Below are positions 9,815-21,082 of a stretch of DNA of 64,000 bases, one piece after another. Source of the stretch: Clostridia bacterium (GTDB lineage Bacteria; Bacillota; Clostridia; CAKSNL01; HGM11501); the NCBI GenBank assembly GCA_045545475.1, contig JAZQAZ010000020.1:1-64000 (forward strand), read 5' to 3'. How positions within the stretch are numbered: position 1 is the stretch's first letter; each line of letters begins with the position of its first letter. Made by a program: the position numbers and the translations under genes. The notes beneath the pieces were generated by a model. That model was given only the letters and a program-made list of their open reading frames with translations. It did not search any database and was not told the origin of the DNA.

Positions 9815-10474
9815 ATGAAAAAATATTTTGATATTTTGAGGAAATGCAATCTTTTTTTAGGTGTAGAAGACGAAAATTTAATTCCGCTCCTGGGATGCAT
9901 AGGGGCGAGGGTTGAAAGCTACGGAAAGAAATATACTGTTCTTGCAGAGGGAAGCGTCCCGAAATATATGGGAATTGTTTTATCGGGAAGCGTACAGATT
10001 GTTCAGGTGGATTACTACGGAAACAGATCTATTTTGTCGGGTGCAGAACCGTCGGAGCTTTTCGGAGAGGCTTTTGCCTGTGCCGAAATAAAAAGCCTTC
10101 CCGTATCGGTAATAGCCAATGAAGATTCAAAGATTATGCTAATCTCTGCCGAGAGAATACTTCATTCCTGTCACAATGCCTGTGCATTTCATCAGAAAAT
10201 GATTTTCAACCTTATGAAAAATCTTGCGGCTAAAAATATAATGTTTCATAAAAAGGTTGAAATTACTTCAAAACGTACCACAAGGGAAAAGCTTATGGCA
10301 TATTTAATGTCAGAAGCAAAACGGCAGGGGAAGAATGAATTTTTAATTTCCTTTGACCGTCAGGAGTTAGCTGATTATCTTGAGGTAGACAGAAGCGGTT
10401 TATCTGCCGAAATAAGTAAGCTGAGAAACGAAGGAATAATCGAGTGCAGAAAAAATCTGTTCAAGTTATTATGA
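9815..10474 (+). CDS. Crp/Fnr family transcriptional regulator
   Basis: cNMP-binding domain (GIVLSGSV...FGEAFA) and HTH RQELADYLEVDRSGLSAEI; RBS AGGAG before ATG 9815. Confidence 0.93.
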   Translation: MKKYFDILRKCNLFLGVEDENLIPLLGCIGARVESYGKKYTVLAEGSVPKYMGIVLSGSVQIVQVDYYGNRSILSGAEPSELFGEAFACAEIKSLPVSVIANEDSKIMLISAERILHSCHNACAFHQKMIFNLMKNLAAKNIMFHKKVEITSKRTTREKLMAYLMSEAKRQGKNEFLISFDRQELADYLEVDRSGLSAEISKLRNEGIIECRKNLFKLL

Positions 10475-10512
10475 AAAAAGAGCGATGGATTTTAATCCAT
10501 CGCTCTTTTTTT
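10474..10512. terminator. Bidirectional terminator
   Basis: AAAAAAGAGCGATGGATT / AATCCATCGCTCTTTTTT between convergent genes. Confidence 0.88.
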
Positions 10513-12001
10513 ACCAGCCCATAAATTCTTCAATTACGGGATAAAGCTCTTCTGCTATTTCTAAGTGTCTTTCATACATGGGGTGTCTGGGATAGGGGAT
10601 TTTCGATTCAAAGACCATAATTTTTGAATTGTCATGGTCTTTGCCGTATTCTTCTATCGCTGCATTTATCGTTTCGGTAAACTTAGGGCGGCTGGAATTT
10701 CCCATAACGATGATTGACACACCGGGGTGAGCCTCACGGAAGGCAATAAACATATTTACATAAGCCTTTTTGATATCATCATAGGAAAGGCCGTCTCTCT
10801 CAATTTTACCCACAACATCGTTTATCCAGTTAAACTGAACGATTAAGTCGGGCTCATATTTTGCGTGGTTCCATTCACCGTATTTGGGATTTACCTGAGA
10901 TACCTTATTGTAAATGGGATCGTTTAATGATGTGAAGCAGTTGTATGCAGAAAGTCCGCTTCTTGCGAAAACTTCAAGCTCTGTATCAAAGTGACGTGCA
11001 ACGTGGGATATGTAAGAGTTGTTGGCGTTTTCATACTTGCTTCCGTGTCCCTTGTCCACATTGTCGGGGTAGTTTACGTTGTTGGAAGCACAGGTGATGG
11101 AGTCGCCGAATACCTGAATTTTACGGCTTTTAGCGGGGGCGGGAGATAAAAGCTCTCCGTTTTCAATATCAACGGAAATCCACTGAATCTGATTGTAGCT
11201 TTCTTCGTTGTCCTTTAAGATTTTAACTGTGTGAATACCGTCTGTAAGGCCTTCTGCGATAACAAATTCGTTTTCGCCCTTGGGAAGCTCAATTCTTACT
11301 TTGTCGTCTTCCTCATAGCTCGTATAAACTGTCTTGTCTCCGTCTATAAATGTGTGAAGATAAGCTGTCTGATTACCTGTTACATTAACCTTTATTTTTG
11401 CACCGGTACCCTTGAAACGAATTTCAATTCCCGATGCGGAAAATGCGGATGTAAGGTATCCGTCCTTTTCGTAATATCTGCCGATGAAACGTGCTGTATT
11501 TCCGTCTATCATATAGCCGTTATCCTCCGTCATATTTGCATAAAGCATTTTTTCTATGGTTACTGTTCTGGTTGTTTCGTCCCATTCCACGTTGGATTCA
11601 AGTGCTTCGGCAAGAGCACGTACGGGAACAAGAGTTCTTCCGTCAATAATCATGGGAGGAACATCTGCTTCTATTTCCATATCAGCCTCGGTGCCTTCTG
11701 CAACATCTGTTGCAAGGTAAAACTTAACCACCGGGCTTCCTATTGTCATCATAACCGTATAGTCGTAACCTACGCCTGTTGCGGTCTGTGTTTCACCGTT
11801 CCAGGAAACAGCCATTCCCAGGGCTTCGAAAATCGCTCTTACCGGAAGCATGGTACGTCCGTCAACAATTGTGGCAGGAACGTCGGACTCCACCTTGCCG
11901 CCATTTACGATAACTGTTATTTCTGTGTTTTCTGAAAACGCTGTGCATGTAAAAATTAAAAGTGCAGTAAGTATTAATGCGATTATCTTTTTCATGTTCA
12001 T
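10511..12001 (-). CDS. Secreted protein: CuAO_N (stalk) domain plus CE2-like SGNH/GDSL esterase
   Basis: Signal peptide; two DGRT[M/L][L/V]PVRA..EAL...V.W motifs; beta-domain followed by FGDSITC and a C-terminal RHP. Confidence 0.75.
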   Translation of the reverse strand: MNMKKIIALILTALLIFTCTAFSENTEITVIVNGGKVESDVPATIVDGRTMLPVRAIFEALGMAVSWNGETQTATGVGYDYTVMMTIGSPVVKFYLATDVAEGTEADMEIEADVPPMIIDGRTLVPVRALAEALESNVEWDETTRTVTIEKMLYANMTEDNGYMIDGNTARFIGRYYEKDGYLTSAFSASGIEIRFKGTGAKIKVNVTGNQTAYLHTFIDGDKTVYTSYEEDDKVRIELPKGENEFVIAEGLTDGIHTVKILKDNEESYNQIQWISVDIENGELLSPAPAKSRKIQVFGDSITCASNNVNYPDNVDKGHGSKYENANNSYISHVARHFDTELEVFARSGLSAYNCFTSLNDPIYNKVSQVNPKYGEWNHAKYEPDLIVQFNWINDVVGKIERDGLSYDDIKKAYVNMFIAFREAHPGVSIIVMGNSSRPKFTETINAAIEEYGKDHDNSKIMVFESKIPYPRHPMYERHLEIAEELYPVIEEFMGW

Positions 12002-12671: not shown

Positions 12672-13361
12672 ATGTATAAAGGACATGTTGTTACTGCCGT
12701 AATACTTGCGGCAGGTTGCGGAAAAAGAATGAATGCAGGAAAAAACAAGCTTTTGCTCGAAATTTCGGGCAAAAGCATTTTGTCGTATACGATAAAGTGC
12801 TTTGACAAGGCTGCTTTGGTGGACGAACTTGTTTTAGTTTCTGCTCCTTGTGAAGAAGAATTGGTAAGAAATATTGCCGCATCAGTTGCGACCAAGCCTT
12901 TCAAGGTCGTTATCGGAGGGGCAGAGAGAAGCGACTCTTCGAATAACGGAGTTTTGGCATCTAAAGACGGCATTGTTTTAATTCACGACGGTGCAAGAGC
13001 GTTTTGCGAGGAAAGAATAATAAACGAATGTGTTGAAGCTGCTGAAAAATATGGTGCGGCAGCACCGGGAATTGCTGTTACAGATACGGTAAAGCTGGTT
13101 AAAAACGGATTTATTAAAGGCACAATTTCCCGTGACAGCCTTACAAGAATTCAGACACCGCAGACATTTATAAGAAGTGAGATATTAAATGCTCACGAAA
13201 ATGCGAAAAAAGACGGGATTAAAGTTACGGATGACTGTATGCTTATGGAAAACTGCGGCAAGGATGTTTTCCTTGTTGAAGGAAGCCCGTATAATATTAA
13301 AATTACGGTTAAGGAAGATCTTATACTTTCAGAGCGTATTGTAAAGGAGATGGGCTTATGA
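12672..13361 (+). CDS. ispD: 2-C-methyl-D-erythritol 4-phosphate cytidylyltransferase
   Basis: LAAGCGKRM, GGAERSDS, IHDGAR, QTPQ, TDD, NIKIT. Confidence 0.95.
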   Translation: MYKGHVVTAVILAAGCGKRMNAGKNKLLLEISGKSILSYTIKCFDKAALVDELVLVSAPCEEELVRNIAASVATKPFKVVIGGAERSDSSNNGVLASKDGIVLIHDGARAFCEERIINECVEAAEKYGAAAPGIAVTDTVKLVKNGFIKGTISRDSLTRIQTPQTFIRSEILNAHENAKKDGIKVTDDCMLMENCGKDVFLVEGSPYNIKITVKEDLILSERIVKEMGL

Positions 13362-13816
13362 GAGTAGGGTTCGGATATGACAGCCACAGACTGGTTGAAG
13401 AAAGAAAACTGATTTTAGGCGGTGTTGAGATACCCTTTGAAAAAGGTCTTTATGGCCACAGTGATGCGGATGTACTTACACACGCCGTTATCGATGCTAT
13501 TTTCGGAGCAGAAGCAAAAGGGGATATAGGCCGTCATTTTCCGGACAATGATCCGGCTTATAAAGACATAAATTCGATGGTACTTCTGGAAAAAGCGGTG
13601 TCTGAAATGGATGGAAAGATTGTAAATATTGACTGTACTCTTTTAATTCAGAAGCCCAAAATGGCTCCGCATATAGAGGAAATTCGCAAAAGTCTTGCGA
13701 AGGGACTTAAGACGGATATAAAAAACGTCAGCGTGAAGGCGAAAACAGAAGAAGGCATGGAAGCCGTTGGCAAAGGTGAACTCGTTAAAGCATATGCTGT
13801 TGTTTTAATAGATTAG
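13358..13816 (+). CDS. ispF: 2-C-methyl-D-erythritol 2,4-cyclodiphosphate synthase
   Basis: GFGYDSH, GHSDADV, GDIGRHFPD, KAKT; ATGA overlap with ispD. Confidence 0.96.
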   Translation: MRVGFGYDSHRLVEERKLILGGVEIPFEKGLYGHSDADVLTHAVIDAIFGAEAKGDIGRHFPDNDPAYKDINSMVLLEKAVSEMDGKIVNIDCTLLIQKPKMAPHIEEIRKSLAKGLKTDIKNVSVKAKTEEGMEAVGKGELVKAYAVVLID

Positions 13817-13818
13817 GC

Positions 13819-13847
13819 TTGACTTTTTGCTCTGCTTAGGCTATAAT
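13819..13847 (+). promoter_or_regulatory. Sigma-A promoter for tRNA-Leu
   Basis: TTGACT-17 bp-TATAAT upstream of the tRNA. Confidence 0.75.
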
Positions 13848-13875
13848 TAAAAAGCTTAATTTTGCATTTAATAAT

Positions 13876-13960
13876 GCGGATGTGGTGGAATTGGCAGACA
13901 TGCCAGATTTAGGTTCTGGTGCAGCAATGCGTGCAGGTTCAAGTCCTGTCATCCGCACCA
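13876..13960 (+). tRNA. tRNA-Leu (anticodon TAG), encoded CCA
   Basis: Acceptor stem GCGGATG/CATCCGC, D-loop GGAATTGGCAGAC, anticodon arm CCAGA-TTTAGGT-TCTGG, long variable arm, T-arm GGTTCAAGTCC, 3' ACCA. Confidence 0.97.
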
Positions 13961-14354
13961 AAAAGAAAGCGTACCCAACGGGTACGCTTTCTTTTTGCAT
14001 GATAAAGTAAGGACTTGAACCTTAAGAAGGTTTTTGCGTAAAGAAAACGATTGATAATCGTTTTTAGCAAAAAGGTGCGAAGGTTGGTACCGAAATGCGA
14101 AGCATTTGGGTAACCGAGCAGTGCAGATTGCGAAGCAATATGCGTCCTGTCATCCGCACCAAAGAAAAAAAGTCGTATACCAACGGTATGCGGCTTTTTT
14201 TCTTTGGTATAAATAGATGGTAAGGACTTGAACTTGTCATAGGCAAAATTGCCCGAAGGGAATTTTTCCGAAGGCACTGCTCAAGTCCTACATATAGCCA
14301 GATGTTGATTGAGACAGCGGGCGAACTTGTCATAGGCAAAATTGCCCGAAGGGA
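13943..14354 (+). repeat. tRNA-linked modular repeats: duplicated tRNA 3' end plus terminator, two TAAGGACTTGAAC motifs, 32-bp direct repeat
   Basis: GTCCTGTCATCCGCACCAAA at 13943 and 14144; TAAGGACTTGAAC at 14008 and 14221; GAACTTGTCATAGGCAAAATTGCCCGAAGGGA at 14230 and 14323. Confidence 0.9.
13960..13996 (+). terminator. tRNA terminator
   Basis: AAAAAGAAAGCGTACCC-AAC-GGGTACGCTTTCTTTTT. Confidence 0.9.
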
Positions 14355-14368
14355 CTTTGAAATGCAAT

Positions 14369-14403
14369 GAAAAACAAGGAGCATAAAAGGCTCCTTGTTT
14401 TTA
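14369..14403 (-). terminator. Terminator for the convergent membrane-protein gene
   Basis: AAAAACAAGGAGC-ATAAAAG-GCTCCTTGTTTTT. Confidence 0.8.
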
Positions 14404-14405
14404 CG

Positions 14406-15185
14406 TTATTTAACTTTTTCAAGGCACAGAAGATATTGTCCTTTGTTCTTTTCCGTGATATTTGGATGGGTTGTCCAGTTTTGCAGGTGATCATACCATT
14501 TCAGGTAAACATCTTCATCGACATTTACAATATAATAAACACCGTCTTCGACTTTTTCAAGCTTCCACAAAATGCTTGTGCATGCTTTTGAATATCCTAC
14601 TCCGTTTTTACCTGGAGTGACGCCGAGAAGTTTATCTCCGTATGAGATTGTAAATGTGCCGTCATTCCTGAAATCCAGCTCAAACACAGAGTCTCTTGAG
14701 TAATCTTCAAGCTTGCCACTGTGTACAACCACCGGATCGCCTGACAAGTAGTAAGATTTATGTACATTGTGTGTTAGTGCAATATTATACTTATCTGCCC
14801 ATATTACATACTTTCCGTCCTTGTTGGTAACGTTGAAGAAAAGCATGCACGAAGAAATTATGATAAGTAATACGGAAATGCAAATTCCAACAACGAAGAT
14901 GTTTGGCTTTACAGGCTTTCTCATTTTTCCTTTGGCTGTTTGCGATTCATCGGTGCTTTTAGCCTTTTCATCATTTTCGTGGATGGCACAGAGAAAAGTG
15001 TAAATGAGAAAAGCACCAAGAAAAATAAGTGCGAGAAATATTAGGGTTGCAGGGGTTTGCAATACGTCTACCTTAAAGGCAAGCCAGGCATAAAGGCCTG
15101 CCAACGAAAAAAATGCATACGGGATACTTTGCCATTCCCGCCAGTTATCTTTAATTTTGTCAAATATATTGAATATGTCGCCCAA
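14406..15185 (-). CDS. Hypothetical membrane protein (about 3 TM helices plus beta-rich C-terminal domain)
   Basis: 259-aa ORF with TTG start and GGAGG RBS; three hydrophobic segments; terminator directly after the stop. Confidence 0.7.
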   Translation of the reverse strand: MGDIFNIFDKIKDNWREWQSIPYAFFSLAGLYAWLAFKVDVLQTPATLIFLALIFLGAFLIYTFLCAIHENDEKAKSTDESQTAKGKMRKPVKPNIFVVGICISVLLIIISSCMLFFNVTNKDGKYVIWADKYNIALTHNVHKSYYLSGDPVVVHSGKLEDYSRDSVFELDFRNDGTFTISYGDKLLGVTPGKNGVGYSKACTSILWKLEKVEDGVYYIVNVDEDVYLKWYDHLQNWTTHPNITEKNKGQYLLCLEKVK

Positions 15186-15318
15186 AAAAATCCCTCCATG
15201 TACGGAATTTCTAGCATTATATCATTTTTTAATACGTTTGGCAAGAGAAAGTTAGAAACTGATGTATTTGCACTTTATTAAAATATGCCGCTTTTCAAAC
15301 AGAAAAACGGCATATTTT

Positions 15319-17382
15319 TTATAATTTGATTTCAAAAAATCTTGCCTGGATATCTTCGGTAAAGTCAATGGTGAGGGAGGAGGAATCAAACGTGAATTTT
15401 GTTTCCATCTTTTCAGGGTAAATAACTTTTACATCCTTAACCGTAATTTCAGGAAGAGGAAGGTGTGTGTGTCTTTCGCCATTTAAATTCCACACGGCAA
15501 GGTAAACCTTAGTGTCCGTCTTAAGACCCGATGCAACAAAGGTATCGCCGTAAGCGGCATATCCCTTGGGAAGATAGGGTGTTGACTTAAGCTTGTCTGG
15601 CGTGATGCGGTCATAAACATCAATTCCTTCTTTGATAAGAGCCTGCTTTTCTTCATCCAGGAGATGTATGCGTGATGCAAGATGGATTCTTCCGAGGAGT
15701 GAATTTATCATATTCATAACAACTCTTTCTTTTGAGACAAGCTCGTTAACCTCAGGACCCGGAGCCTTGTTATATACGTCGATTGCAACGGGATAGCTCC
15801 ATACAGCCGCCTGCTCGGGAAGAACCGATGCGGCAACATTTGCACTTATGTAGGGGTAGGTTAAATAGTCTGTCTGGTCAGAGGTTGAAATTAGATGAAA
15901 GATGGAAAGTGCCTTATAGTCCATTCTGTTTCCGCCGCCGTAGCAATCCTCGAAAATTACGTCGGGATGGCGGTGCATTGCATCAATGGTCCAGTTAAGG
16001 AAAGCTTCGTAGGCTTTTTCAAGTCCGTCGCCTAATGACGTTGAATCAAGCTCTGTTCCGCATCCGGGATTGGGACAGCCGTCGTACTTTATATAATCAC
16101 AGCCGTATTCATCTATCATTCGGTCGAGGGTTTTTGACATATAGTCATAAACCTTCTTGTTTCTGAAATCCAGTAAATAGCCTGTGCCGTGGCGGATTTT
16201 CTTGCCGTTTCTGATAAAGAAGCAATCGTCTCCGTAATAGGAAAGCATCTTTTCGTTGTCAACACCAACAACTTCGGGGCCTATCCATAAGCCGAATTTC
16301 ATTCCAAGGGAGCGTACATATTCTGTTACGGCACGGATTCCGTCGGGGAATCGGGTCAAATCCTCAAACCAGGTGCCGAATTTTGGATACATACCCATAG
16401 GGCCGGTGATATCTTTCGAATCGTGCCAGCCGCAGTCAACAACATAATATTTGCATCCGGCCTTTGCAACAAAGGGGGCAGTAAGCTTAACTCTTTCTGC
16501 ATTGGGATCGTCCCAGGAATAGTGCATATATTCGTTGTATATTGCAGGAAGATTTTCGTCAGCCTTGCTCTTAGGCTTTATGTGACGGCGATAGGAAGTC
16601 ATTTCGGCAAGTACCGAATTAAGTGTCTTACCGCCTGCGATTGCAACGGTAGCTGTCTCATAGCTTTCGCCGGAAGCAAGGTATTTATTCCAGTTGTGGT
16701 GGCGTGCATTAAAGCCTGACAAGTGAAGGTTGAAAGCAGGATCAATCTGATAAACCCAGCTTGTGTAGCTTTCAATCTGGAACATTAAAAATTCCCCGTC
16801 ACGTCTGTTTTCAACTATACCCTGAGGAAGGGAGAGGTAGGCAGAGGCGTTACCGGTATTGGACACGAAAAATGTTCCGTTTTCCCACTGGAAACCTAAA
16901 TCGTTAAGGCTTCTTACATCGGGATGTGCCTCGGTATATCGGGAATTATTGAACTTGTGGAAAAAGTAGGCGTTTTTGTCTTCGGAAAGCTTCTTTCCGA
17001 AGCGGAGTCTTAAGCTTGTAGCCGCCTCTAAGCATACTTCTTCATCGGAGATGTTTTTAATTAAGTGCTTAACTCTTATCGCATTGGTATCGTCATACAT
17101 TATGAAACAGCTTGTTACCTCAAAATTATCTGATTTCTGCACTATGGTGAGAACGTTTTCATTCACTTCGTGGCTTACATATCTTAGCTTTGCGGTCTCT
17201 TGTGATGAGCCCATACGGTAGCTTCCCGATGAGGTGCCGCCGGCAATGTCAAACTCCATAAAAGCAAGGGATCTTGGGTTATTTAATCGTTCTGTGTTAT
17301 CGAAGCCGTAATAATTTGTGAGTGCAACGAATCCGCCGTCCGTAACGGTAAAGGTGAGTGCACCGAAAGTAAATGTATTCAT
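15319..17382 (-). CDS. Alpha-galactosidase, GH36
   Basis: YNEYM, YYVVDCGW, RFPDG, GMKFGLW.GPE, DYIKYD, E.C.GGG.RMD, STSDQ. Confidence 0.9.
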   Translation of the reverse strand: MNTFTFGALTFTVTDGGFVALTNYYGFDNTERLNNPRSLAFMEFDIAGGTSSGSYRMGSSQETAKLRYVSHEVNENVLTIVQKSDNFEVTSCFIMYDDTNAIRVKHLIKNISDEEVCLEAATSLRLRFGKKLSEDKNAYFFHKFNNSRYTEAHPDVRSLNDLGFQWENGTFFVSNTGNASAYLSLPQGIVENRRDGEFLMFQIESYTSWVYQIDPAFNLHLSGFNARHHNWNKYLASGESYETATVAIAGGKTLNSVLAEMTSYRRHIKPKSKADENLPAIYNEYMHYSWDDPNAERVKLTAPFVAKAGCKYYVVDCGWHDSKDITGPMGMYPKFGTWFEDLTRFPDGIRAVTEYVRSLGMKFGLWIGPEVVGVDNEKMLSYYGDDCFFIRNGKKIRHGTGYLLDFRNKKVYDYMSKTLDRMIDEYGCDYIKYDGCPNPGCGTELDSTSLGDGLEKAYEAFLNWTIDAMHRHPDVIFEDCYGGGNRMDYKALSIFHLISTSDQTDYLTYPYISANVAASVLPEQAAVWSYPVAIDVYNKAPGPEVNELVSKERVVMNMINSLLGRIHLASRIHLLDEEKQALIKEGIDVYDRITPDKLKSTPYLPKGYAAYGDTFVASGLKTDTKVYLAVWNLNGERHTHLPLPEITVKDVKVIYPEKMETKFTFDSSSLTIDFTEDIQARFFEIKL

Positions 17383-18910: not shown

Positions 18911-21082
18911 ATGAAAAAGCAGTTTATAAGGGCAACAGAGGAATTTGCAAGCTTTGAAAAGGGCGTGAACGCACCTTATATAAGAAAAAGCTTCAGCCTA
19001 GATTTTGTGCCCGAAAAGGCAACAATTGATATATCGGGACACGGCTTTTATGTTCTTTTCGTAAACGGAAAAGACATAACAAAGGGACATTTAGCACCCT
19101 ATATAAGCAACCTTGACCATTATATTTATTATGACTCCTATGATGTATCGCCATATCTTGCAAAGGGTGAAAATGTAATAGGCGTAATGCTCGGTAACGG
19201 CTTTATGAATCCCTTCGGCGGCTCCGTGTGGGATTTTGACAAGGTGGCTTGGAAAAATGCACCATGCCTTGCTTTAGAGTTTATGGCCGAAGGAGAAGGA
19301 AAAAGCCTTTCCTTCGATGCAGACGAGTCCTTTAAGTGCCATCCGTCGCCCATAATTTTTGACGAATTAAGAATGGGAGAGCATTACGATGCTAATCTTG
19401 AAATTGATGGCTGGAATATGCCGGGCTTTGATGATTCTGCCTGGAATAATGCACTTTTTGCTGATGCTCCGAGAGGTAAAATGGAAAAGTGCGAAGCAGA
19501 ACCCATATGTGTTCAGTATGAGCTTAAGCCAACAAAATTTTATAAGGTTGATGGCGGATATATCTACGATTTCGGCGAAAACAATGCTGGTGTATGCCGC
19601 TTAAAGCTTAAAAATGCGGCAAAAGGACAGAAAATTGAGCTCTGGCACGCCGAGCTTCTGAAAGAAGACGGAAGCCTTGATATTTCATCCACCATTTTTG
19701 ACCGCCCCACAACACAGTTTTACAAAGAATATTCCCAGAAGGATTTATATATCGCAAAGGGCGAAGACGAAGAAATATACACGCCTTCCTTTACCTATCA
19801 CGGCTTCAGATATGTTTATGTGACGGGCATAACTGATGCGCAGGCAACGGGAGAACTTCTTACATATATCGTAATGAGTACGGGATTTTCCGAAATGGGA
19901 GGCTTTGATTGCTCATCGGAAACCGTTAACACACTTTTTGAAATGGCAAAGCGCTCCGACCGCTCAAACTTTTACTATTTTCCGACAGACTGCCCTCACA
20001 GAGAAAAGAACGGATGGACAGGGGATGCATCAATTTCCGCACCGCATATGACATACCTTTACGATACGGAAAAAAGCTACACCGAGTGGCTTAAAAATAT
20101 CCGTGCCGCACAGACGGAGGACGGAAGAATACCCGGAATCGTGCCCACGGGAGACTGGGGCTTTGCCTGGGGTAACGGCCCTGCCTGGGATTCTGTTTTA
20201 TTCAATCTTCCCTATGAGCTTTATATAAAAAGGGGAAATACAGATATTATAAGAGAAAACAAGTCCGCGATGATGCGCTATCTTACATACATTATGGGAC
20301 GAAGAAGCGAGGACGGAACCATCGCTGTCGGACTTGGGGACTGGGTACCTGTCGGAAAAGGGGCAGACCAGTATGATGCACCTCTTGCACTTACCGATAC
20401 CCTTATGGTAATGAAGTCGGCTCATCAGGCATCGGTGATGTTTGATGCCATTGAAGCAACCTTTGAGGCAGACTATGCAAGAAGCATTGAAGAGGAACTC
20501 AGAAACACTTTAAGGGAAACAATGATAGACTATGAAACAATGACGGTTAAAGGGGCTTGTCAGAGCTCTCAGGCACTCTCACTTTACTATGGGCTTTTCA
20601 CGGAAGAAGAAAAGGATGAGGCATTTTCAAGGCTTCTTGAATTTCTTCATAAGAAAGATGACCGCTTTGATGTAGGATTTTTAGGACTTGCCGTGCTTTT
20701 CGATGTGCTTTCCGATTTCGGAGAAGGAAATCTTGCCTACAGGCTTATTACTCAGGATGGCTATCCTTCCTACGCTCATCTGATTGAAAACGGCGAAACA
20801 ACCATTCCGGAATGGTTTAAGCCTGATGCCGACAGACTTTATTCCCACAATCATCATTTTCTCTGCGACTTTACACGCTGGTTTATCGAGCGTGTAGCAG
20901 GCTTAAAGGTTATAGACAGCGAAAATGTTTTGATTCAGCCGGATTTTATAGACGGTCTTGACTATGCATCGGCATACTATGACCTTCCCGGAGGAAGAGT
21001 TTCCGTTTCCTGGAAAAGGGAAAACGGCAAGGTTAAGGTATCATACAAGGCACCTGCCGGAGTTTCGGTAACAGAAGTATAA
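18911..21082 (+). CDS. Alpha-L-rhamnosidase, GH78
   Basis: YDFGENNAG, FTYHGFRY, PTDCPHREKNGWTGD, GLGDW, SHNH. Confidence 0.93.
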   Translation: MKKQFIRATEEFASFEKGVNAPYIRKSFSLDFVPEKATIDISGHGFYVLFVNGKDITKGHLAPYISNLDHYIYYDSYDVSPYLAKGENVIGVMLGNGFMNPFGGSVWDFDKVAWKNAPCLALEFMAEGEGKSLSFDADESFKCHPSPIIFDELRMGEHYDANLEIDGWNMPGFDDSAWNNALFADAPRGKMEKCEAEPICVQYELKPTKFYKVDGGYIYDFGENNAGVCRLKLKNAAKGQKIELWHAELLKEDGSLDISSTIFDRPTTQFYKEYSQKDLYIAKGEDEEIYTPSFTYHGFRYVYVTGITDAQATGELLTYIVMSTGFSEMGGFDCSSETVNTLFEMAKRSDRSNFYYFPTDCPHREKNGWTGDASISAPHMTYLYDTEKSYTEWLKNIRAAQTEDGRIPGIVPTGDWGFAWGNGPAWDSVLFNLPYELYIKRGNTDIIRENKSAMMRYLTYIMGRRSEDGTIAVGLGDWVPVGKGADQYDAPLALTDTLMVMKSAHQASVMFDAIEATFEADYARSIEEELRNTLRETMIDYETMTVKGACQSSQALSLYYGLFTEEEKDEAFSRLLEFLHKKDDRFDVGFLGLAVLFDVLSDFGEGNLAYRLITQDGYPSYAHLIENGETTIPEWFKPDADRLYSHNHHFLCDFTRWFIERVAGLKVIDSENVLIQPDFIDGLDYASAYYDLPGGRVSVSWKRENGKVKVSYKAPAGVSVTEV

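Follow-up and report, generated by a model that had tools for sequence, protein, structure and literature searches.

Host-matched folded cassettes behind tRNA genes of gut Clostridia form a new family, probably of the tRNA-linked repeat type

[quoted passage not shown] They include the RtT units distal to tyrT-tyrV (rttR, Rfam RF00391) and the units RrA, RrB and RrF behind 5S rRNA, and TLRs are described there as having no known function, RrA, RrB and RrF being read-through transcripts that bind Hfq and CsrA in vitro (PMC8144298). Here we describe an array of the same layout in a 64,000-nucleotide stretch of DNA from a Clostridia bacterium (contig JAZQAZ010000020.1 of assembly GCA_045545475.1; hereafter the window), where two complete cassettes and one stub (13961-14360) stand behind a tRNA-Leu(UAG) gene. 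A full-text literature search returned no description of comparable units for Clostridia. We favour, at a probability of roughly 0.6, the reading that the array consists of TLR/RtT-type cassettes of a new family of gut Clostridia, each cassette being a folded passenger carried in the tRNA transcription unit and gained, lost and shuffled through recombination at its 18-nt copies.

The tRNA-Leu gene is the only tRNA called by ARAGORN in the window, and the 440-bp gap between it and the terminator of a convergent gene is filled by unit 1, unit 2 and the stub (Table 1). Unit 1 opens with a terminator, followed by a spacer, an inverted copy of the host T-arm (antiT), a folded core (core A) and an 18-nt direct copy of the tRNA 3′ end (S), whereas unit 2 joins its terminator, spacer and antiT to a shorter and different core (core B). 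Two copies of the 3′-end 18-mer GTCCTGTCATCCGCACCA, at 13943 and 14144, are spaced by 201 bp (2 matches, with 0.00 expected from 100 shuffles), GTAAGGACTTGAAC is present at 14007 and 14220, and AGGACTTGAAC matches the window three times against 0.03 expected, one match being the host T-arm itself on the minus strand. The first 5 nt of S copy 1 pair with 14010-14014, closing the fold, and the 3′ arm of core B, TCAAGTCCT, copies tRNA positions 55-63 only, without the CCA.

An initial annotation, made by a model from the letters alone, had described a tandem unit of tRNA 3′ end and terminator with a 201-bp period, an antisense T-arm motif, terminators with AAC loops and three short hairpins between the repeats. 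A repeat search recovered every element of the unit where it had been placed; the antisense motif is an exact reverse complement over all 13 nt, the terminators are perfect or near-perfect hairpins, and the three hairpins are helices P2, P5 and P7 of a fold backed by compensatory changes. Beyond that description, we found that unit 2 carries a different folded core, that a third stub follows, that other tRNAs in this genome show the same arrangement and that the layout is the one known from the E. coli repeats. Rfam returned only weak sub-threshold matches on the array (miRNA, RAGATH-6, trpB, Thr leader). The open reading frame list shows only short frames overlapping the repeats in 13961-14402 and no integrase or recombinase gene in or beside the array, and the linked recombinase that the annotation had envisaged was thus not found. 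Two minus-strand frames (13939-14277 and 14064-14384) were considered as coding and taken as chance frames; related units differ by 1-2-nt indels and by compensatory pairs.

Table 1 Features of the tRNA-Leu(UAG) locus and its repeat array (window coordinates; S, tRNA positions 59-76; antiT, reverse complement of tRNA positions 51-63)
Feature	Position	Strand	Evidence or remark
tRNA-Leu(UAG), called as tRNA-Leu(tag), host gene	13876-13960	+	ARAGORN; Rfam tRNA 53.6 bits
Host T-arm core, tRNA positions 51-63	13935-13947	+	
S of host, tRNA positions 59-76, final 18 nt	13943-13960	+	
Terminator 1, perfect 18-bp hairpin with AAC loop, flanked by A and T runs, begins at CCA	13959-13997	+	Arms 13959-13976/13980-13997, 100%
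Spacer, AT-rich, length mirrors tRNA positions 64-76 across the terminator	13998-14009	+	Sequence; geometry in 53 relatives
antiT copy 1, exact reverse complement of tRNA positions 51-63	14010-14022	+	13 nt, 100%
Cassette 1, antiT + core A (helices P0-P7) + S	14005-14161	+	Covariance model R1, 174.1 bits, E 4.7e-44
S copy 1, exact 18-nt duplicate of tRNA positions 59-76 with CCA	14144-14161	+	
Terminator 2, 24-nt arms, AAC loop	14158-14208	+	Arms 14158-14181/14185-14208, 92%
antiT copy 2, AGGACTTGAAC	14223-14233	+	
Cassette 2, core B, two hairpins (GAAC-TTGTCATAGG...CCGAAGG) inside closing stem AGGACTTGA/TCAAGTCCT	14223-14289	+	Fold z -3.81; TCAAGTCCT at 14281-14289
Third-unit stub, 5′ part of core B, degenerate antiT	14323-14358	+	36 nt, 97% identical to 14230-14265
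Hairpin terminator of convergent gene 14406-15185(-)	14370-14402	.	Array boundary, not array member

We compared this arrangement with the K-12 tyrT-tyrV locus, where 178-bp units close with the last 19 nt of the tRNA and the tyrV-distal units contain a segment that is 86% complementary over 22 nt to the T-arm region, 10 nt of it exactly. The Clostridial cassettes and the TLRs both stand immediately after a tRNA or rRNA gene, in its orientation, end in the last 18-19 nt of that upstream gene (18/18 nt in the window), are tandem, non-coding and folded with variable copy number, and, in the tyrV-distal units as in the Clostridial cassettes, include an antisense piece of the T-arm. By contrast, an intrinsic terminator comes with each Clostridial unit but is missing between the tyrT units, and the inverted piece here spans exactly positions 51-63 including the T-loop, whereas the exact part in E. 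coli spans 60-69. The Clostridial hosts also belong to another phylum and comprise at least 16 tRNA species and tmRNA.

The match between cassette and host follows strict rules, which we quantified on 45 full modules with an adjacent tRNA, covering 16 tRNA species. The S copy measured exactly 18 nt in 28 of the 45 and at least 17 nt in 36, against a mean of 5.4 nt when modules were paired with mismatched tRNAs, and the median antiT match was 13 nt, compared with 7 nt for the control, which bears out the earlier expectation that the 3′ end is re-duplicated. The companion expectation, that the antisense motif co-varies with each host T-arm, held in the 53 modules scored per position, with agreement of 92-100% at positions 51-63, 45-53% at 64-66 and 9-36% at 67-72; antiT tracked even the variable T-loop bases, at position 57 in 51 modules and at position 59 in all 53. 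In the same set the terminator stem begins at CCA in 43 modules, the spacer past the terminator is mostly 12-16 nt long, compared with 13 nt for positions 64-76, and antiT mirrors the T-arm across the terminator with a median arm difference of +1 nt (-3 to +4 in 41 modules). The sequence that follows the CCA of a module showed no relation to the trailer of the host tRNA in 29 of 38 comparable cases, at least 90% identical in seven and the same terminator with an indel in two, so the block of identity normally stops at the CCA, and the modules in which it continues look like tandem duplications. Only two of the 45 modules carry a foreign S, and both are chimeras joined within the core.

The primer-binding site of retroviruses is an 18-nt complement of a tRNA 3′ end, and the 18 nt of S might accordingly be a tRNA stretch reverse-transcribed until a stop in the T-loop, the cassette being a cDNA primed on, or template-switched to, the tRNA. 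The predominance of copies that comprise exactly positions 59-76 with the CCA would fit such a retro-copy, as would the opposite strand of the unit, which opens with the 18-nt complement of the tRNA 3′ end. We nevertheless hold this origin to be very improbable. The CCA in S proves nothing because nearly all these tRNA genes encode it, the seven copies with an identical trailer run past the CCA into the tRNA's terminator, which mature tRNA lacks, and RVT_1 (PF00078), which matched four of 12 congeners, had no match in the core-A carriers G007, G002 and G004.

A filled and an empty site at tRNA-Pro(cgg) define the insertion. In the window's genome this gene is bare, with its own terminator directly after it, and in a congener it is followed by a 242-bp insert of core-B type that closes with a second 18-mer copy; the terminator and flank after the second copy are identical between the two genomes (~95 nt the same), whereas the sequence after the first copy is unrelated (45/150). 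This comparison places the insert between the CCA and the native terminator, or equivalently between positions 58|59, with 18-nt direct repeats. The insert brings its own terminator. A shared terminator type, GTCGTATACC...GGTATGCGGC, travels with units at tRNA-Leu(tag), tRNA-Leu(caa) and tRNA-Pro(cgg) in several genomes, and the type of terminator 2 accompanies cassettes at tRNA-Leu(caa) in the window's genome and at tRNA-Leu(tag) and tRNA-Pro(cgg) in relatives. The tRNA-Leu(tag) site itself varies among seven congeners from none to three units, being empty in two and elsewhere holding B alone, another element, A alone, A then B as in the window, or B, a further element and then A.

A cassette is composed of a terminator, a spacer of ~14 nt, the 13-nt antiT, a folded non-coding core and the 18-nt S, inserted between the CCA and the native terminator, and the gene-less units measure 160-240 bp. 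The proposal that the locus carries an inserted, non-coding, non-autonomous unit linked to tRNA 3′ ends, and not a one-off scar, is upheld by these data. At a tRNA-Met gene of a congener (L038), a core-A unit is split by a ~290-bp insert with a perfect 20-bp terminal inverted repeat (AGATGCGTTAGTATCCGAAC...), which looks like a miniature inverted-repeat element that landed inside core A.

The same architecture is dispersed in the window's genome (G000; 2.74 Mb in 50 contigs, 35 tRNAs and one tmRNA) and far beyond it, as the initial annotation had anticipated. BLAST located further copies of the region on three other contigs as well as behind tRNA-Leu(caa); the latter gene has three tandem core-A units by R1, a covariance model built in this work, and four 3′-end copies by eye. 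The reverse complement of a tRNA's own T-arm recurred over at least 10 exact nt downstream of nine of the 35 tRNAs, seven times at +48 to +56, just past the terminator, whereas the maximum upstream was 8 nt and the downstream regions of other tRNAs averaged 6-7 nt. Likewise, the last 14 nt before the discriminator base plus CCA recurred downstream at five of the 35 tRNAs and upstream at none. Between the same two types of flank this genome holds four or more mutually unrelated cores (A, B, C and one rich in GC), including at least eight more core-B copies behind tRNA 3′ ends. Three tandem core-B units lie on the minus strand of contig C25 (~10100-10620), on which ARAGORN called no tRNA; they are preceded by a 3′-end copy of tRNA-Lys(ttt), whose gene is on C40, and the first and third close with a piece derived from the T-arm of that tRNA.

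Core A was found by BLAST in 12 of 41 relatives, and an exact 26-letter pattern placed it in at least 119 stretches from metagenome-assembled genomes of Clostridia, Eubacteriales and Oscillospiraceae from animal guts. R1, searched in 151 evenly sampled genomes of the class, matched 37 of them, spread over 27 of 108 genera, and gave as many as 13 matches in a single genome. A tRNA end on the same strand lay at most 120 nt upstream of 50 of the 68 near-full modules (80 loci in all), one module in a relative lies 46 nt after tmRNA, and a core-A unit on contig C37 of the window's genome bears tmRNA-specific flanks, bringing the hosts of core A to at least 16 tRNA species plus tmRNA. Core A is not in Rfam, and searches of viral contigs, phage records and plasmid records gave no match. 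The cassettes are a new family that is widespread in gut Clostridia.

Genomic islands and prophages integrate in the 3′ ends of tRNA and tmRNA genes by means of tyrosine integrases, and remnants that have lost the recombinase are the cis-mobilizable elements (CIMEs). The cassettes could be scars of this type, with an 18-nt att core and stacked by repeated integration. They share with such islands the direct repeats of the tRNA 3′ end that bound the insert, the intact tRNA and the stacking of units, whose order differs between species. Ordinary islands do use the same sites, because in the window's genome a phage-like island with a DUF927/CHC2 primase, a sigma-factor-like gene and a phage capsid follows the tmRNA gene ssrA (C29 12000-20400, L203) and contigs C37, C1 and C50 carry the same island end, ...AATGAAAGGTGAAGCGTCGCCTCCACCA, with a 14-nt copy of the tmRNA 3′ end; it appears that islands have displaced the core-A unit of the tmRNA from its place beside the gene. 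Integrase-family matches also lie within ~200 bp of tRNA-Lys(ttt) and tRNA-Ser(cga) (tyrosine integrases at C40:22425-22991 and C10:124154-126145), neither of which has an inverted T-arm copy downstream.

We nonetheless regard scars of this kind as improbable. Unlike tRNA islands, the cassettes are short, hold neither gene nor integrase, combine one core with many tRNA species and possess an inverted T-arm copy and a fold kept by compensatory changes; such changes in six helices argue for selection on the fold and not for decay. The same 115-nt core stands behind all these tRNA species with matched ends, and we know of no integrase so promiscuous as to serve at least 16. The empty searches of phage, plasmid and viral records point the same way, and no larger element bounded by core A was seen. 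Tyrosine recombinases (Phage_integrase) were present in all five genomes searched, 5-12 in each, regardless of the module, and the count reached 12 in both G005 and G008, which lack it.

Core A is a multi-helix module under selection to fold. RNAalifold, applied to 31 modules, predicted 34 pairs, 24 of them with compensatory changes, and the structure that we tested comprised ten helices and 45 pairs, two of the helices having been added by eye. In this structure 90.3% of cells were paired, compared with 80.2% after shuffling, and 29 pairs had changed on both sides, compared with 15.5 (0/500 shuffles reached the observed value); sliding the partner by 1-3 columns lowered pairing to 39-49%. In 87 model-aligned modules 93.4% of cells were paired against 77.0%, with 631 doubly changed cells against 188, the alignment having been fitted to the structure and one helix being invariant since the search pattern lay within it. 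The host sequence takes part in the fold: the closing helix of core A is formed by the first 5 nt of antiT and the first 5 nt of S, and core B of unit 2 is predicted to fold as a three-way junction with a 9-bp closing stem of the same host origin, so that the closing stem equals tRNA positions 59-63 (core A) or 55-63 (core B) and co-varies with the host. A conserved GGTGCG that pairs with the CGCACC of S in a single-sequence fold was rejected as a helix, as it stays unchanged when the host 3′ end changes.

This wealth of hairpins had led the initial annotation to propose a link with HUH/Y1 enzymes, and a miniature single-stranded DNA (ssDNA) transposon read by such an enzyme, akin to miniature inverted-repeat transposable elements in the style of IS200/IS605 or of repetitive extragenic palindromes (REP) with their associated tyrosine transposases (RAYT), would account for several features. 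Units have hairpins at both ends (the terminator on the left, P7 on the right), an orientation fixed relative to the tRNA and many triloops, including GCGAAGC. REP sequences and bacterial interspersed mosaic elements (BIMEs) with RAYT, like the miniature derivatives of IS200/IS605, are short, hairpin-rich, genome-specific dispersed repeats, and, as with the cassettes, their copies are closer within a genome than between genomes. They differ from both groups by standing strictly at tRNA 3′ ends, with ends copied from the host and an 18-nt repeat flanking the insert, whereas IS200/IS605 elements are not known to make a target duplication. Loop sequences vary freely across modules (GAA, AAA, GGA, GTA, AGC, TCT), so the GCGAAGC mini-hairpin is not conserved. 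The enzyme was not found where it would be expected: the copy-rich relative G007 (97% complete; 10 matches by R1 and 15 by BLAST) has no match to Y1_Tnp (PF01797), which occurs in eight of 12 congeners, among them G008 and G006, both without core A by BLAST and the former also missed by R1. We consider such a transposon quite unlikely.

The relationships among cores bear on how copies spread. A core-only tree, built on 110 columns from genomes of which kin are not independent, grouped by genome, with 18 label changes against 22.7 ± 1.0 and none of 300 shuffles reaching this value, and did not group by tRNA (38 changes against 39.8 ± 1.4; 51/300 shuffles). Mean core identity was 0.81 for different tRNAs of the same genome (n=15), 0.70 for the same tRNA in different genomes (n=64) and 0.69 where both differed (n=1146). 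Ancient tRNA-specific lineages are not favoured by these values, same-tRNA cores being no closer across genomes than others. The likeness within genomes fits either recent spread with remade flanks or gene conversion among dispersed cores. Exchange from core to core is directly visible in two chimeric modules, whose 5′ half is that of the resident locus and whose 3′ half and copy are those of the module of another tRNA.

Under the TLR-type reading, transcription of a cassette would start at the tRNA promoter and read through the terminator, and the transcript would fold, with host-derived antiT and S pairing to close the structure. The transcript would close with the 3′ end of its host tRNA, with a terminator after it, and for this reason may be trimmed and stabilised by the tRNA 3′-end machinery, as are the E. 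coli repeat RNAs, which keeps plausible the CCA-ended structured RNA that the initial annotation had offered as an alternative. In the DNA, the 18-nt copies would serve as direct repeats, and gain, loss, duplication and reordering of units would take place between them; cores behind different tRNAs within a genome would swap sequence by homologous recombination, and the enzymes would come in trans. We infer that the folded strand is the RNA of the tRNA strand and that this RNA is processed, and a new tRNA would at some stage have acquired its first matched cassette. G-U pairs outnumber A-C pairs (84 against 47), a mild point in favour of the tRNA strand being the one that folds, although this 1.8-fold excess is small and the alignment behind it was fitted to the forward strand.

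Several observations weigh against this reading. Both strands fold well (z -4.41 forward, -5.42 reverse), so folding energy cannot choose between them, and most hairpin loops are triloops (GAA, GAT, AAG), a loop type no less suited to folded DNA than to RNA. A terminator separates the tRNA from every cassette, and a promoter of the cassette's own, considered as an extended -10 element in the spacer, was rejected, with TGnTAnnnT in five of 72 modules and TAnWWT in 32 of 72 at scattered positions; with a terminator intervening and no conserved -10 in the spacer, expression would need read-through. antiT follows position 57, which lies outside S, so pairing with S alone fails to explain antiT, and plain recombination leaves the matched antiT and S at all the host tRNA species unexplained. 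The Rfam model RtT (RF00391) gave no match at E<=10 in 13000-15500 and none in the whole genome, while the E. coli control scored above the cut-off. Given that there is no homology to RF00391, we file the cassettes as the same kind of element and not as members of that Rfam family.

A rival explanation is guide-directed insertion, in which the cassette, as ssDNA or RNA, would be a programmable mini-element with no enzyme of its own. Its antiT would pair with the sense strand of the T-arm and S with the antisense strand, docking the element on the opened, highly transcribed gene; a host enzyme would cut and join at 58|59, and both guides would be rewritten from the target, antiT through a template switch across the terminator palindrome and S through the strand exchange. 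This would suit the sharp and universal boundaries of both copies (51-63 and 59-76), the tracking of position 57, needed by no pairing with S, the mirror symmetry of antiT to the T-arm and the position of the insert exactly between two S copies. Identical flank pairs on unrelated cores (A, B, C and others) would likewise follow, as would the greater likeness of cores inside one genome, compared with those at one tRNA in different genomes, which recent intragenomic spread would leave behind. Folded single-strand recombination sites, served by IntI or XerCD, are known in integron attC and in the CTX-phage attP(+) hairpin, where two arms of one strand pair and rebuild a duplex copy of the target, as the predicted closing stems of the cassettes would, and insertion of a circle by one strand exchange within S would give the observed order of tRNA, S, terminator, antiT, core, S and native terminator; the rebuilt duplex of the cassettes, however, spans just 5 bp (core A) to 11 bp (core B).

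We judge guide-directed insertion to be unlikely all the same. No enzyme was found for it: Y1_Tnp and RVT_1 were missing from G007, the DEDD transposase (PF01548) of the bridge-RNA family IS110 from all five genomes searched, three of them module carriers, and GIY-YIG matched solely frames of 610-640 aa, the size of UvrC. Gene conversion explains the likeness within genomes equally well, and chimeras are seen. We saw neither circles nor junctions, no single-stranded form and no recent identical copies shared between tRNAs, and the fixed spacer could just belong to the unit itself. Were it true, any folded core would be portable to any tRNA or tmRNA 3′ end, and the E. coli TLRs would be products of the same ancient, general mechanism.

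On the TLR-type reading, tRNA-linked repeats are not just an enterobacterial curiosity but are abundant in gut Clostridia, where they obey strict rules of an 18-nt direct copy, a 13-nt inverted copy and mirror placement across the terminator. With hundreds of copies at many tRNA species, the matching of the ends and the role of the folded product become testable. The cassettes are open to confusion with att scars of islands or with tRNA pseudogenes, and they break metagenome assemblies at tRNA genes.

Two further elements were noticed at tRNA 3′ ends. A unit of ~150 nt, here called D, occurs in the window's genome (C37 ~13760-13890; L004/L204) and in relatives (L013, L014, L015, L020, L025 and L039); it opens right after the CCA with the hairpin CGTCGRAGCAAAG...CTTTGCTYCGAC and a T run, closes with GGGGACCCC or GACACGTTATGAACAYYCGCACCA, and in two relatives its right end abuts the tRNA terminator stem, as if it had been inserted into the terminator. 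Several tRNA terminators are followed by an iteron-like element rich in TGAAATA/GTGAAAT (or GATATCAC) repeats; in the window's genome it stands behind tRNA-Cys (C47 57260-57850), tRNA-Trp (C4 ~20560-20720) and tRNA-Lys(ctt) (C9 ~1800-1960), and it also occurs in G003 (L182). At tRNA-Cys the element includes a small gene that by eye resembles the four-helix-bundle '23S rRNA intervening sequence protein' type, and past the element comes a core-B unit whose flanks are those of tRNA-Cys.

A search for RNA runs containing window positions 13300-14900 gave none. In four public metagenome runs from the gut (DNA), contigs matching window positions 13840-14163 break at the tRNA and at the repeats, with no clean joint, and the summed contig depth over core A was ~50x that of the unique flanks (~1000 against ~20 in run X1). 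Given this excess of depth and the breaks at the repeats, the family is a frequent cause of assembly breaks in these communities.

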